A DNA stretch of 64,000 nt from Oligoflexales bacterium (GTDB lineage Bacteria; Bdellovibrionota_B; Oligoflexia; Oligoflexales; JAPPIL01): NCBI GenBank assembly GCA_965215515.1, contig OZ244057.1:96001-160000 (forward strand), read 5' to 3'. The position numbers and the translations under genes are program-made. Within the stretch, counting starts at the first letter, position 1. Each line of letters begins with the position of its first letter. This document shows positions 29,043-57,180 of this stretch, piece after piece. The notes below the pieces were generated by a model, which worked only from the letters and a program-made list of their open reading frames with translations, had not been told where the DNA came from and did no database searches.

Positions 29043-29394
29043 GGGGGCGCACTGGCTTCGACAGGTGCATTCGGTGAGTTAGGGAGCATGTCCGAGCTTG
29101 GAACGCGTCTCGGTAAAAAGGTGTTCTGCTGCATAATTGGCGACAATTACGCACTTGCAGCCTAAGCTTTAGGCTGCCGTCGACCTTGAGGGTGCTGGTC
29201 TCTTTTGGGAGATGTCATCTACCAGCTGGTTCGCCATAGCTTGGGTCTGGAGTTGTGGCGGATGAGATTAATCGGGCTACGGCCCGTGCAGCCTGGTCGT
29301 GGGCGTTGCGGGAAAGAGCTTAAAACACGCACCTAAGCATGTAGTGCTTTAGCCATCAGGCATGTGGACGTGGGTTCAATTCCCACCGCCTCCG
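29043..29394 (+). ncRNA. ssrA: tmRNA
   Basis: 5' GGGGGCG..ttcgac pairs with 3' CGCCTCC (G3-U wobble); T-arm gtgggttcaattcccac; tag ORF 29139-29165 GDNYALAA-stop inside hairpin gcagcctaa/ttaggctgc. Confidence 0.96.
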
Positions 29395-31126
29395 CTCTCC
29401 CAGCGTACACACAGAATGTGTCCTCACCTGAGTTTTCAGGTGAGGATGTGTTGTTGAAAACAAACTCCAGCTGCACCCTCTCACCGTCCAAAGGCTGGAC
29501 GATAATTTTTTTGAACAGCTGCCTGTAGGTAGACTTGAGCGAAAGCCAATCCTTCTTCTTGACGTAGTTGATAGCCTTGTGAGTGTGCTTTTGCCACTCG
29601 TTTGCACAACGAATATGCCTGAGTGCATGCAGCGAGCTAGGAAGCGAGCGATGCAAAAGGCGGCGTAGCTGTTTCTTCTTGCTGATAAGCTCCCTCTCCT
29701 CGCCTTTCATGGCAGAAACCCGCTCCTTATACTCTTCTCTGAAAGAGCGTGCCATTTCCAGATCGTCATCTTCGAGCAGAAAGTTCAAACGGCGGTCTAG
29801 GCGTTGCCTCTCATCTTCCAATTCACCTAGCTTCGTGTCGATCTCCGTAACTTTTCCCTTCACCAAGTCGATAGTGCTGTCCTTGCGTGCTGAGTAGTCA
29901 GCTATGCTCTTCTGAAACTCTGGGGCATTCTCTGCCACTTGGCGCAGTATCTTCTCGGCCTCAGTGTCGAACGCTTCTGCCTTCACCCTAATCTTGTTGG
30001 TCTTGTTGTGGTAGTAAGTCGATTTTTGCGTCCTACCCCACGCACTACTGCCCGTAAACCTAGAGCCGTCGTTGAAGACCAACAGACCAGTAAGGGGGTA
30101 ACAACTCTTGGTTGCCTGTGCCCGCGACTTGTCCAACTCCTTGACCTTATCCTGCACTCGTTGCCACAGTTCTTTGTCAATAACACAACCATGTTCTAGC
30201 TCAACTTCTGCGAAACGTTCATAGGGCATGAGCTTGTTCTGACGTTTGTCTTCGTTGCGCTTGTTGCGATACCACTTGCCGATGTAGCGGGGATTGGTCA
30301 ATAGCGTTCTAATGCTAGACCTTGTGAAGTCACACCCCCGTTTAGTCTTGATGCTCTTCTCTTTGCAACGGTCGAGCAGGACATTGTATCTGTCCACATT
30401 AAGGAAAGAAGCCATAATCCATTCGACCTGTTTCAGTTCCTTCTTGTTAGGGGTGTAGCTACCTGTGTATTCGCCGTGTTCGTTTCTAACTGCATCGAAG
30501 CCCAGTAGCGGATAGTGACCGTTGAACTTACCTGAAGTCAGCAAAGCAGAGTGGTTGCTTTCTCTGATGCGCTTGGAGGTTGTGCGGGATTCAAATTCAG
30601 CAAACGCCGCCAGTTGATCAAGCTGCAAGATCGAAGCAGGGTCGTTCGGATTGAAGGGCAGTCCCCTAATGCAAATCTCGCAATCATGGCTCTGGCACAA
30701 CCTAAAGAAACGCTTCCAAATTTCAAGGTCTCTGACCAGCCGTGCGATCTCCTTGAAGATAACAAAACTGTGGTTCTTGCAGCTGATGTTATGCTGTAGC
30801 CTGATGAACTCTGGTCTGTTGCCATGCGTTCCTGTAATGCCCGGCTCGATATAAAACTCGGTGATCCTGTAGTTCACCTTCTCCTGTTCCGAGCGATACT
30901 GCGCTTCAGAGATGGCAATGTGAATTTGCTGCTCCAGTGATCCCCGCTCAACCGCTACCTGCGTGTCATCCGACAGTCGTAAGTAGACCGCACCCTCAAT
31001 CGTCTGCCACTCCTTGTTGACTGGCTGCCAGTTCTTGATGTGCTGGTCGGCAAGGCCGCGGCAATCCGCCACGACCTTCAGCACCAGTGCCTTTATTTCT
31101 TTGTGATTAAGTCTTTTTCTATACAT
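29333..31126 (-). CDS. Large serine recombinase (integrase); last 19 codons are antisense tmRNA
   Basis: VYLRLS catalytic Ser, SLEQQ, RPEF, RLVRD, AEFESRTTSKRI, recombinase domain LLTNPRYIG, coiled coil. Confidence 0.93.
   Translation of the reverse strand: MYRKRLNHKEIKALVLKVVADCRGLADQHIKNWQPVNKEWQTIEGAVYLRLSDDTQVAVERGSLEQQIHIAISEAQYRSEQEKVNYRITEFYIEPGITGTHGNRPEFIRLQHNISCKNHSFVIFKEIARLVRDLEIWKRFFRLCQSHDCEICIRGLPFNPNDPASILQLDQLAAFAEFESRTTSKRIRESNHSALLTSGKFNGHYPLLGFDAVRNEHGEYTGSYTPNKKELKQVEWIMASFLNVDRYNVLLDRCKEKSIKTKRGCDFTRSSIRTLLTNPRYIGKWYRNKRNEDKRQNKLMPYERFAEVELEHGCVIDKELWQRVQDKVKELDKSRAQATKSCYPLTGLLVFNDGSRFTGSSAWGRTQKSTYYHNKTNKIRVKAEAFDTEAEKILRQVAENAPEFQKSIADYSARKDSTIDLVKGKVTEIDTKLGELEDERQRLDRRLNFLLEDDDLEMARSFREEYKERVSAMKGEERELISKKKQLRRLLHRSLPSSLHALRHIRCANEWQKHTHKAINYVKKKDWLSLKSTYRQLFKKIIVQPLDGERVQLEFVFNNTSSPENSGEDTFCVYAGRAEAVGIEPTSTCLMAKALHA
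29421..29446 (+). terminator. Perfect 11-bp hairpin just downstream of tmRNA, supplied by the element
   Basis: tcctcacctga-gttt-tcaggtgagga followed by tgtgttgttg. Confidence 0.6.
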
Positions 31127-31461
31127 GCTTCACCTGCTGATTGTTGTAAGCATGGGCGATAATCCGTGCCACAGAAGCCAAGTCTACCTTAGATAGATCA
31201 CCCGTTACTTTGCTTTCAATCACGAAATTATCACCGTCTATCACCACCCGTTTTCTCGCCCGATTTTTCCGTCGCTTGTGGCAAGATGCACGATTGCGGC
31301 AACTCTTACAAACGCTATTGCGCCCATTCCGACCACCCGCTTTCTTACCGAAAAAATCCCAAGTTCTAAACTCGCCGCATTTTCTGCAGCACCTACCCAG
31401 ATTTTCATGTGCTATCTCTCACTCCCTTCAATGTTACAGCGCAACGCTCCTGAATTCAATG

Positions 31462-55887: not shown

Positions 55888-55899
55888 AAGGACACCTAC

Positions 55900-57180
55900 C
55901 TATACTAGCACTTTCCCCGAAATATACACACCTTCTCTTTTGAGGATCTCGGCGACCGTGCAGTTGTGCCAGCCTTTACCTTGCTGTTTGGTTGGTATCT
56001 TCATGGAGTTCAAGAACCTTGCGATGGCGTTTGTGCTAATCCCCTCAGCATACATCGTCCTGATGGTGTCAATGGTACGCAGTTCGGCCTTGTGATCTAC
56101 GGTTCTTCCACCGACCCGCCGCTTGCCGTAGGCATACCACTTAGAACCGCGGTAGTCCGATGTCTTTCGCATAGGGATGTTGTATTTCAGAAGCAAGCTT
56201 CTGATGTATGTTTTTGAGCACGCAAATTCACTGGCTATAGCTCTTGTTGAGAGCCGATTTTCGATATATTTTTGTCTGAGTACACTTTCAGGAATGAACA
56301 CAGAAGTGAGATAGCTATCTAATTCCATTAATAATTTGCGATTGAGTTCGGATTCTGCATCTTGGCAAACACAGACCGCTCTCCCAGCGTACACACAGAA
56401 TGTGTCCTCACCTGAGTTTTCAGGTGAGGATGTGTTGTTGAAAACAAACTCCAGCTGCACCCTCTCACCGTCCAAAGGCTGGACGATAATTTTTTTGAAC
56501 AGCTGCCTGTAGGTAGACTTGAGCGAAAGCCAATCCTTCTTCTTGACGTAGTTGATAGCCTTGTGAGTGTGCTTTTGCCACTCGTTTGCACAACGAATAT
56601 GCCTGAGTGCATGCAGCGAGCTAGGAAGCGAGCGATGCAAAAGGCGGCGTAGCTGTTTCTTCTTGCTGATAAGCTCCCTCTCCTCGCCTTTCATGGCAGA
56701 AACCCGCTCCTTATACTCTTCTCTGAAAGAGCGTGCCATTTCCAGATCGTCATCTTCGAGCAGAAAGTTCAAACGGCGGTCTAGGCGTTGCCTCTCATCT
56801 TCCAATTCACCTAGCTTCGTGTCGATCTCCGTAACTTTTCCCTTCACCAAGTCGATAGTGCTGTCCTTGCGTGCTGAGTAGTCAGCTATGCTCTTCTGAA
56901 ACTCTGGGGCATTCTCTGCCACTTGCCGCAAGATTTTCTCGGCTTCAGTGTTGATTAGCTTGCGCAGATAGCCGCGCTTGTCAAAGAACTTCACCGCTAT
57001 ATTGTCATACTCCTGTGCTGCATACTTCTGAAAGAAGGTCGCCACGATCTGATTGGCAAGCTTCGAGCTATCCACCTTGCAGTAGTTGCTGCGCAACTTT
57101 GCCACCAGTTCAGCGACGAGACTTGCCTGTTCCCTTCCTAGCAGCACCCTGCGTACTTCGCTCTTCTGTTTTGCGCTCAT
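55900..57180 (-). CDS. Chimeric ORF: small ICE protein N-terminus, integrase C-terminal third, then an HTH/recombinase-domain extension
   Basis: Start is homologous to 31462-31773, middle is identical to the integrase, last 158 aa are new (LSTRAIASEFACSK; YG..AIARFLNSMKIPTK..W..TVAEILKR). An internal ATG at 56328 could give a stand-alone 142-aa protein. Confidence 0.75.
   Translation of the reverse strand: MSAKQKSEVRRVLLGREQASLVAELVAKLRSNYCKVDSSKLANQIVATFFQKYAAQEYDNIAVKFFDKRGYLRKLINTEAEKILRQVAENAPEFQKSIADYSARKDSTIDLVKGKVTEIDTKLGELEDERQRLDRRLNFLLEDDDLEMARSFREEYKERVSAMKGEERELISKKKQLRRLLHRSLPSSLHALRHIRCANEWQKHTHKAINYVKKKDWLSLKSTYRQLFKKIIVQPLDGERVQLEFVFNNTSSPENSGEDTFCVYAGRAVCVCQDAESELNRKLLMELDSYLTSVFIPESVLRQKYIENRLSTRAIASEFACSKTYIRSLLLKYNIPMRKTSDYRGSKWYAYGKRRVGGRTVDHKAELRTIDTIRTMYAEGISTNAIARFLNSMKIPTKQQGKGWHNCTVAEILKREGVYISGKVLV
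56376..56925. repeat. 550-bp direct repeat of 29392-29941
   Basis: Constant offset of 26984; no differences noticed by eye; identical translations in the ORF track. Confidence 0.92.

Follow-up and report, generated by a model that had tools for sequence, protein, structure and literature searches.

Introduction

Integrase genes that extend across the attachment site of their own element (attP) are known for tyrosine integrases. In phage Mx8, attP lies inside the coding sequence of the IntP/IntX integrase, and after insertion the gene has a different 3' end and the protein changed properties, as described in passages of PMC6070905 and cited in PMC4383910. Genes for SSV1-type archaeal integrases likewise extend across attP and are partitioned upon integration into a tRNA gene (passages of PMC4383910 and PMC8371274). 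Here, an arrangement of this kind is described for a large serine recombinase (LSR) in a 64,000-nt stretch of an Oligoflexales bacterium (GCA_965215515.1, contig OZ244057.1 positions 96,001-160,000, forward strand; the whole stretch is called the window), where an integrative conjugative element (ICE) of about 27 kb adjoins the gene for transfer-messenger RNA (tmRNA). Judged from sequence, it is very likely that the attP core lies inside the LSR gene and that integration cuts off a module of 158 amino acids (aa), referred to below as the tail. The explanation as a whole, which adds to this split gene the ICE at the tmRNA gene and a tandem joint with an older element, is likely.

Despite the like arrangement, the integrase of the window is a serine recombinase and hence falls outside the tyrosine Mx8 and SSV1 families. 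Mx8 is a phage with tyrosine chemistry and a long att core with arm sites, and its target is the 3' end of a tRNA gene. The window system, in contrast, is an LSR on an ICE with a shared core of 5-7 bp, and the swapped piece would be a complete module of a helix-turn-helix (HTH) and a recombinase domain. SSV1 is an archaeal virus, again with a tyrosine integrase, and its split removes catalytic parts, whereas the catalytic and canonical DNA-binding parts of the window LSR stay together.

The canonical LSRs (PhiC31, Bxb1, SPbeta SprA and Listeria A118/LI) share with the window LSR a Resolvase domain, a recombinase domain and, probably, a coiled-coil C-terminal region. Their att sites are short and partly dyad-symmetric, as those of the window system appear to be, and the second half of the tail folds as their recombinase domain. 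They differ in lacking a C-terminal module of HTH and second recombinase domain (HTH-RD2), in having their direction set by a separate recombination directionality factor (RDF), and in their targets, which are mostly protein genes. The att sites of canonical LSRs are not known to lie inside the integrase open reading frame (ORF).

A passage of the 2014 Islander database paper describes serine integrases as not known to target tDNAs, the genes for tRNA and tmRNA (PMC4383910). The ssrA islands of Dehalococcoides, as presented in parts of PMC3146451, have the serine recombinase DsiB at the tmRNA gene, together with a 20-bp ssrA direct repeat, an insertion point in the T-loop and a second small recombinase, DsiA. 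These islands are not conjugative, whereas the window element is an ICE with its core at the acceptor end and an ORF that crosses this core. The 19-nt pattern of the tmRNA 3' end, allowing up to 3 mismatches, occurs only once in the window, such that a repeat of the DsiB type is not present, and no DsiA-like second recombinase was found among the 30 element ORFs scanned with Pfam (ORFs under 80 aa were left out). Engineered integrase-RDF fusions, according to passages of PMC5737554, demonstrate that a covalent accessory module at the C-terminus alters the recombination direction of a serine integrase. Those fusions are synthetic, while in the window system recombination itself would attach and detach the module, which is a DNA-binding domain and no known RDF. 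Searches of the open full-text literature, which leaves out subscription journals and supplements, turned up no serine integrase gene that extends across attP. With the spanning of attP known for tyrosine integrases, what is particular here is that the piece concerned is a complete two-domain DNA-binding module with a large family of its own, and that its carrier is a 27-kb ICE.

The short integrase at the tmRNA junction

The left border of the element is defined by four features:

29043-29397, + strand: tmRNA gene (ssrA), found by ARAGORN with tag GDNYALAA; Rfam RF00023, 118.8 bits
29333-31126, - strand: short-form LSR of 597 aa; by translation, a 578-aa LSR core plus 19 antisense-tmRNA residues
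29333-29392, - strand: 19 filler codons (EAVGIEPTSTCLMAKALHA) plus stop, antisense to the T-arm and acceptor of the tmRNA
29392-29393, unstranded: attL core CC, where the B arm of the tmRNA meets the element's left end (P' arm); the last two acceptor-stem bases, at which repeat identity with a copy at 56376 begins

The tmRNA gene is in one piece and is the sole match to RF00023 above cut-off in the whole genome (G000; 2.18 Mb in a single contig), and its final bases, from 29392 onward, come from the inserted element. An earlier, sequence-only reading of this DNA had proposed that the serine recombinase reads across the island border at ...YAGRA into a 19-aa tail of antisense tmRNA, and translation of 29333-31126 bears this out: the protein runs ...FCVYAGRA up to the core and continues with EAVGIEPTSTCLMAKALHA to the stop. 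Endings of the GIEP/GLEP/GVEP type are likewise present in LSR paralogues that abut tRNA genes.

The short LSR has a catalytic domain (PF00239 Resolvase, E 7.1e-15, residues 46-190) in which Ser52, the serine nucleophile of the YLRLS motif, is invariant across an alignment of 10 LSR sequences, and this domain is followed by PF07508 Recombinase (E 1.3e-14, residues 229-330). The protein (P0001) has no zinc-ribbon Pfam match and lacks the zinc-ribbon cysteines, and residues ~383-450 match only coiled-coil-like families below cut-off; a related LSR of another bdellovibrionotan genome (G042) carries a CxxC...C pattern. Among the 30 element ORFs scanned, P0001 alone has a Resolvase domain.

The comparison genomes were two of the same genus (G001 and G002), one of the same family (G003), one of the Bacteriovoracia (G041) and another of the Bdellovibrionota (G042). 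The tmRNA genes of the three closer relatives have a common ...CGCCTCC up to the core and then diverge to A-TTT (G001, whose tmRNA locus has no element), A-CCA (G002) and A-TTA (G003). In the window (29387-29397) the only tmRNA gene ends CGCCTCC-G-CTC. The element supplies this G-CTC, and thus the discriminator of the sole tmRNA is G, compared to A in the three relatives examined, and CCA is not encoded.

The tandem joint and the long integrase frame

At the far end of the element the LSR frame occurs a second time:

56376-56925, unstranded: exact 550-bp second copy of the element left end (LSR 3' part), from repeat comparison
56376-56377, unstranded: core CC of an attP-like tandem junction between the element's right end (P arm) and a P' arm; repeat edge, with inverted ATTCTG...CAGAAT at 19-24 on either side
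55900-56376, - strand: tail module, right end of the element (P arm), 158 codons plus stop; translation, Pfam, AlphaFold, VIA-align
55900-57180, - strand: chimeric ORF of the tandem joint, 426 aa; translation and repeat offsets
56376-58325, unstranded: remains of an older sister, matching 31541-36430 at 75-88% identity with gene order kept

Positions 29392-29941 and 56376-56925 form an exact repeat of 550 bp, with zero identity leftward and CC as the first common bases. At 56376 the LSR frame does not end but goes on from ...YAGRA into VCVCQDAESELNRKLLMELDSY... for 158 aa, with its stop at 55900. The open frame, and the HTH and recombinase-type DNA-binding domain that had been proposed within it, were confirmed by translation, Pfam and an AlphaFold model, and the two forms of the integrase were reproduced at the proposed lengths (578+158, or 736 aa, for the rebuilt protein and 578+19, or 597 aa, for the integrated one). 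The core thus falls within the LSR ORF, and the gene at attL has a replaced 3' end.

The sequence-only reading had taken 56376 for a junction like that of an excised circle. On comparison of the repeat copies it is instead a chromosomal joint, in which the right end of the ICE (P arm) meets the left end (P' arm) of a decayed sister, and it is this combination of arms that gives the sequence at 56376 the form of attP. Such a joint stays in the chromosome because the ICE sits between the tmRNA gene and the older, decayed sister as a result of tandem accretion. The sister has lost 1577 bp of its recombinase gene (repeat offsets 26984 vs 25407). The 426-aa chimera starts with the N-terminus of a protein homologous to ORF 31462-31773, continues into the final ~190 aa of an LSR and ends in the tail; it has no catalytic domain, which was lost via the 1577-bp deletion.

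Conservation of the frame across the family

The in-frame join of LSR and tail had been considered plausible by chance (roughly 1 in 6-7), and this is excluded by comparison with relatives, in which the frame runs on across junctions and across the attP rebuilt from a single element. A census of LSR 3' ends, made with the LSR C-terminus alone as query in G000 and the fetched loci, yielded 30 distinct ends. Twenty of these lie next to a tRNA or tmRNA gene encoded on the other strand, in 18 cases at a distance of no more than about 25 nt, and the targets comprise tmRNA, Ala, Pro, Val, Arg, Asp, Ile, Asn and Met. Four ends meet neither a tDNA nor a tail, and the remaining six abut a tail; all 6/6 continue in frame into its linker.

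Copies of the LSR/tail family are strewn over G000 (26 LSR and 14 tail matches) and G002 (24 LSR and 41 tail matches), unlike G001 of the same genus, where they amount to 1 weak LSR match and 1 tail fragment. In G000, the N-terminal part is kept in 8 of the 14 tail matches, and half of these (4/8) have an LSR C-terminus directly upstream. All four are in frame without a stop despite differing linkers, namely, with a slash at the join, YAGRA/VCVCQ..., YAGRA/EQIHR... (within a 702-aa open frame), ...SVDRMGSRN/EETEF... and ...CIAAGL/VVQDS... Over all sources, 53 tail copies keep the N-terminal part, and in 48 of them no stop interrupts the frame between the HTH and the core position (8/8 in G000, 22/24, 12/12 at other-genome loci and 6/9 at metagenome loci), and many tails in the attR state have their first stop 1-5 codons past the core, in unrelated flank.

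The other genomes provide attachment sites in several states. An array at the G002 tmRNA locus has attL, a P-P' joint and a true attR, and these three sequences share CCACC only. G041 has a single element, with the tail at its left end and an LSR 61-62% identical to that of the window at its right end. Its attL (AAAATGGTGGAATCG) and attR (GATTTGGTGGACCTA) share TGGTGGA, the GTG of which is an in-frame codon at either site, and recombination within this core would therefore give ...KMV/DLDTASAENVLN..., free of stops. In the array at tRNA-Pro(GGG) of G042, a second LSR clade ends QMV/GATGFEPATP at the tRNA gene and QMV/DCGKTK...tail at the next joint.

Complete frames of LSR plus tail exist in diverged clades from other Bdellovibrionota. 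P0045 (737 aa) has an intact catalytic domain, as does a 753-aa frame in G042 (G042:C2 5507-7765), the LSR of which is 28-31% identical to the window LSR. Compared with the copies at 27660-29937 and 48592-50364, the clade of the 753-aa form reads the common core CAAATGGTCG in another phase (ANG/RSS...), and its P arm is shifted by 2 nt relative to that of the other clade, which keeps the tail in frame; the middle LSR is frameshifted. Further junction-spanning proteins occur in other genomes (P0155-P0160 and P0008). Taken together, the sequence comparisons support attP inside the LSR frame as a conserved property of the family, across at least three LSR clades, several genomes and many tDNA targets.

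The tail module

The tail begins with a 34-aa linker, followed by a three-helix HTH and a second recombinase-type domain. Pfam recognizes PF07508 Recombinase (E 1.1e-6, first half of the domain) and a weak HTH_7. The AlphaFold model, made with 25 relatives, has a pLDDT of 85.6 and places the three-helix HTH at residues 22-72, and residues 71-158 align in structure with the recombinase (DNA-recognition) domain known from serine integrases of solved structure. The best VIA-align match is SPbeta 9y66 (Z 9.3, 84 aa, 27% identity), and all of the top 12 rows are LSRs, with SPbeta followed by Bxb1, PhiC31 and the Listeria integrase; Foldseek alone gave no PDB match for the model at E<=0.001. A prediction of the complex between the LSR core (1-578) and the tail scored 0.00 and gave no answer, which is evidence neither way.

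A full HMMER scan of 1.84 billion representatives at E<=1e-3 defined a tail family of 980 proteins, most of them 130-200 aa long. The conserved part is a 125-aa two-domain module with a mean column identity of 33% among 25 diverse members and with G84, E98, P128 and T129 invariant. The possibility that the tail is a recent duplicate of the LSR's own recombinase domain was ruled out (BLASTP E 3.1), as was variable linker length as an argument for selection on the frame, with the linker at 34-35 aa in all clades examined. Plasmid and phage collections had no whole tail and no extrachromosomal long form, and the matches there (9 plasmids, 1 phage) are partial, between the second half of the tail and the recombinase domains of ordinary recombinases.

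The tail had also been proposed to be made as a separate 142-aa protein from ATG 56328 in the integrated state, which is doubtful. In G000 this tail is embedded in the 426-aa ORF 55900-57180 and does not form a free-standing 142-aa gene. The 22 nt before the ATG (CGAACTCAATCGCAAATTATTA) have no Shine-Dalgarno-like run, and the Met is I/L/K/Y in many other tail copies. The tblastn alignments of the tail begin at query residue 5-7, and therefore the 16 codons ahead of the ATG are conserved as protein.

Attachment site and hairpin

The dyad symmetry of the sites points to the same position as the repeat edges. The 56376 joint has 13/24 inverted arm matches around CC, and the G002 joint has 12/24 at the homologous CC. 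The tRNA-Pro element of G000 has 14/24 inverted matches centred on CG, which is palindromic and again the last two bases of the acceptor stem. The shared core measures 2 bp or more in the window, 5 bp (CCACC) in G002 and 7 bp (TCCACCA) in G041. From these dyad centres and the three-way comparisons of cores, the crossover appears to lie at the acceptor end or CCA, with the dinucleotide itself bounded only to a core of 5-7 bp. The sequence-only reading had the junctions diverging immediately left of CC, as for the 2-bp crossover of an LSR; identity does start at CC and the dyad is centred there, and CC is a candidate for the crossover dinucleotide within the 5-7-bp core to which the relatives bound it.

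Past the core, the P' arm has a hairpin on the tmRNA-sense strand:

29415-29452, + strand: P'-arm hairpin inside the LSR coding region, dG -21.3, z -6.6

The hairpin sits 30-60 nt into the P' arm past the tDNA end and is followed by a U-rich stretch. RNAalifold on a MAFFT alignment of P' arms returned almost no consensus helix (-0.33) because the hairpin loops were misaligned, and therefore the sequences of 26 distinct family members were folded one by one and scored against shuffles. A hairpin at the same position with z below -2 was present in 19/26, with stem sequences that differ in a compensated manner. It is probably a replacement terminator or 3'-processing signal for the rebuilt tRNA or tmRNA.

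A separate observation concerns G003, where a 2.2-kb contig (L012, G003:C214) has a variant layout: about 60 nt downstream of the tmRNA gene, an LSR 3' end follows a terminator-like hairpin, and the LSR ORF stops within that hairpin (...YAYRRPVSP followed by the stop).

Tandem accretion and target choice

The complete elements examined are each followed by a P' remnant and not by native flank (window 56376; G000 1656250; G002 2735563 and 1079480; G042:C2 at 7.3 kb and 29.4 kb). Such remnants include a 103-bp repeat at the tRNA-Pro ICE of G000 and 21 aa at the G002 element iceA. A search of G000 for the native downstream flank (B') of the tmRNA gene, with the G001 and G003 flanks as queries, gave no usable match, and the G003 'flank' is itself another LSR 3' end behind a terminator. 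In G042, the longest exact match between the P' arm of attL and that of the next joint is no more than 17 nt, which argues against entry by homologous recombination; newcomers therefore seem to insert at the core itself, between the tDNA and an older element. The two P' arms of the tRNA-Val array share an exact match of 36 nt.

A P' arm of the YAGRA type is present at the tmRNA gene (29393-29593), at tRNA-Asp(GTC) and behind a tRNA-Val element (G000 1315599-1315661, 27663-27863). Target choice therefore looks relaxed: judged by the distribution of these arms, several different tDNA ends have apparently served a single type of recombinase.

Points against the split gene and alternative origins

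It should be noted that several observations weigh against an integrase gene split at attP. The 550-bp repeat is 100% identical beside homologous genes that are only 75-88% identical, requiring an extra event and pointing to gene conversion in the window. The tail copies are kin and thus the counts of open frames overstate independence, and the linker is nearly constant (34-35 aa), so that few frame-breaking indels were ever tested by evolution. The long forms with visible context all sit in chromosomal tandem arrays and none in a free element (P0045 is on an 11.8-kb contig and P0145 on a 13.6-kb contig); a metagenome scan for relatives of P0045 found none. Most junction copies have no catalytic domain: P0002, P0003 and P0155-P0160 either begin close to the recombinase domain or are internally deleted, and so they demonstrate that the frame is conserved and not that a long enzyme works. 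In the databases, the majority of tail relatives are annotated as stand-alone proteins of 130-200 aa, and a tail-alignment scan of metagenome loci found an LSR upstream of the tail in 0/26, all on short contigs. Lastly, neither an excised circle nor an empty site was seen in public short unitigs from 4 runs of one study. The unitigs end at 56376 and about 56925, which are both ends of the 550-bp repeat, and the assembled genome accounts for the loose ends there, one being the tmRNA arm and the other the P arm of the 27.6-kb joint.

The first of these points would fit a 56376 junction made by homologous recombination or duplication, in which case attP need not sit at CC. The perfect repeat between diverged neighbours does resemble gene conversion or homologous exchange, as might the 36-nt match within the tRNA-Val array. 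Such an origin is nonetheless very improbable, as the repeat begins on its left, with single-base precision, at the end of the tmRNA acceptor stem and the dyad symmetry is centred on the same two bases. The same core position recurs at tRNA-Pro in G000, in attL, joint and attR of G002, in attL and attR of G041 and in the tRNA-Pro array of G042, the last with P' arms that share 17 nt at most.

The stand-alone relatives raise another possibility, that the tail is an independent small gene at the right end, such as a regulator or RDF, and that the long frames are by-products. The best 150 tail relatives are mostly 130-200 aa with the match covering nearly the whole protein, and the tail stands alone in the 26-locus metagenome set and, among 17 loci examined in other genomes, in all 12 that keep their N-terminal part intact. 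Several tail copies have a Met 17 codons past the core, and the LSR copies at junctions are mostly degraded. Stand-alone gene calls are also expected from integrated elements under a split gene, and catalytic loss is expected for the older member of an array; the junction copies may reflect simple decay of that member, or may be dead proteins of recombinase domain, coiled coil and tail with a role of their own. What makes an independent gene improbable is the region ahead of ATG 56328: the start has no Shine-Dalgarno-like run and its Met is unconserved, while the 16 preceding codons are conserved as protein and open exactly to the core in 48/53 copies, with stops soon after in unrelated flank. 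The complete 737- and 753-aa frames in diverged clades, one with a compensated phase, also argue against it.

The conjugative element and its cargo

The element that carries the split gene has the following parts, with coordinates in the window:

29392-56375, unstranded: ICE of about 27 kb; Pfam, PADLOC and repeat borders
32390-33187: Replic_Relax relaxase (Pfam)
33150-34529: FtsK-like coupling protein, FtsK_SpoIIIE (Pfam)
34526-35464: TrbI (Pfam)
35461-35847: CagX (Pfam)
38031-40538: VirB4/TraC, TraC/P-loop_TraG/AAA_10 (Pfam)
46528-54553: defence cargo (Pfam, PADLOC)

A relaxase, a coupling ATPase, a VirB4 ATPase, channel proteins and att-type borders are all present, as in ICEs with a type IV secretion system (T4SS). 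The defence cargo includes a GajB-like UvrD helicase (E 5e-84), an 879-aa SMC-like ATPase with weak LmuB/AriA matches, a metallophosphatase, two ThsB-like TIR proteins (E 4e-75 and 1e-57) and a candidate PDC-M50A/M50B pair. None of the ORFs scanned was recognized as ThsA. Within the element, 43459-43612 has two 70-nt direct repeats, 76% identical and 84 nt apart, inside the small ORF 43381-43632. Past the sister remnant, 59187-63852 encodes a RhuM-family fragment, a protein with a weak possible pPIWI-associated nuclease domain and an AbiEi/AbiEii toxin-antitoxin pair.

Discussion

The sequence comparisons indicate that the LSR inserted a T4SS-type ICE (29392-56375) at the last bases of the tmRNA acceptor stem, with the attP core about 160 codons ahead of the natural stop of the recombinase gene. 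The excised circle would encode a 736-aa enzyme in which the catalytic domain, the recombinase domain and a coiled-coil/C-terminal region are joined through the 34-aa linker to the HTH and the second recombinase-type domain. Integration splits the gene, leaving a canonical LSR of 578 aa plus 19 antisense-tmRNA codons at the left end and the 158-aa module at the far end, and with the core inside the gene, only the circle would therefore encode 736 aa. The P' arm also rebuilds the tmRNA 3' end and supplies a hairpin behind it.

The full-length enzyme, made by the circle only, may be the integration-proficient form, and the extra module may help it to use tDNA ends that lack a conserved far half-site. 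The module probably matters for integration because the far half of the target is not conserved and the dimer would otherwise have one good half-site. By analogy with Mx8 IntP/IntX, the truncated chromosomal form may have altered activity. That the swap controls direction or specificity is possible but doubtful. A more specific proposal, that HTH-RD2 is a switch encoded in the topology of the element and controls the direction of a serine integrase without a classical RDF, is unlikely. With such a switch, the 736-aa form would need no more than the conserved T-arm/acceptor half-site to use any tDNA 3' end as its attB, and could also capture sites already occupied by another element, which would explain the tandem arrays; after integration, the 578-aa core, with or without the orphaned module, would be silenced or switched to excision.

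Alternatively, the anatomy could be right and the swap functionally neutral, with the 578-aa core carrying out both integration and excision with the aid of some RDF. This core appears to hold all canonical LSR domains through the usual C-terminal strand, many LSRs work without such a module, and the solved LSRs have none. Against this, a folded and conserved 125-aa DNA-binding module is kept in frame behind LSRs of 25-30% mutual identity, which is hard to explain without use, and the second half of the module is itself an LSR DNA-recognition domain. A neutral swap is a possible but less likely alternative.

Serine integrases are prized in genome engineering, where a pair of short sites and one protein provide one-way insertion, and how their direction is set is an active structural question. 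A family in which the integrase is split and rejoined by its own reaction would offer a natural experiment on the effect of an appended domain on site choice or direction. The LSR/tail family is spread over the Bdellovibrionota and many tDNA targets, and the 3' ends of many tRNA genes and of the tmRNA gene that it uses are a class of target not credited to serine integrases in 2014. The split gene would also explain what gene finders report at the ends of such elements, namely truncated integrases with GIEP/GLEP-type filler and orphan 'recombinase family' mini-proteins. Finally, the layout is that of an element that would repair both the tDNA end and its terminator using its own coding sequence.

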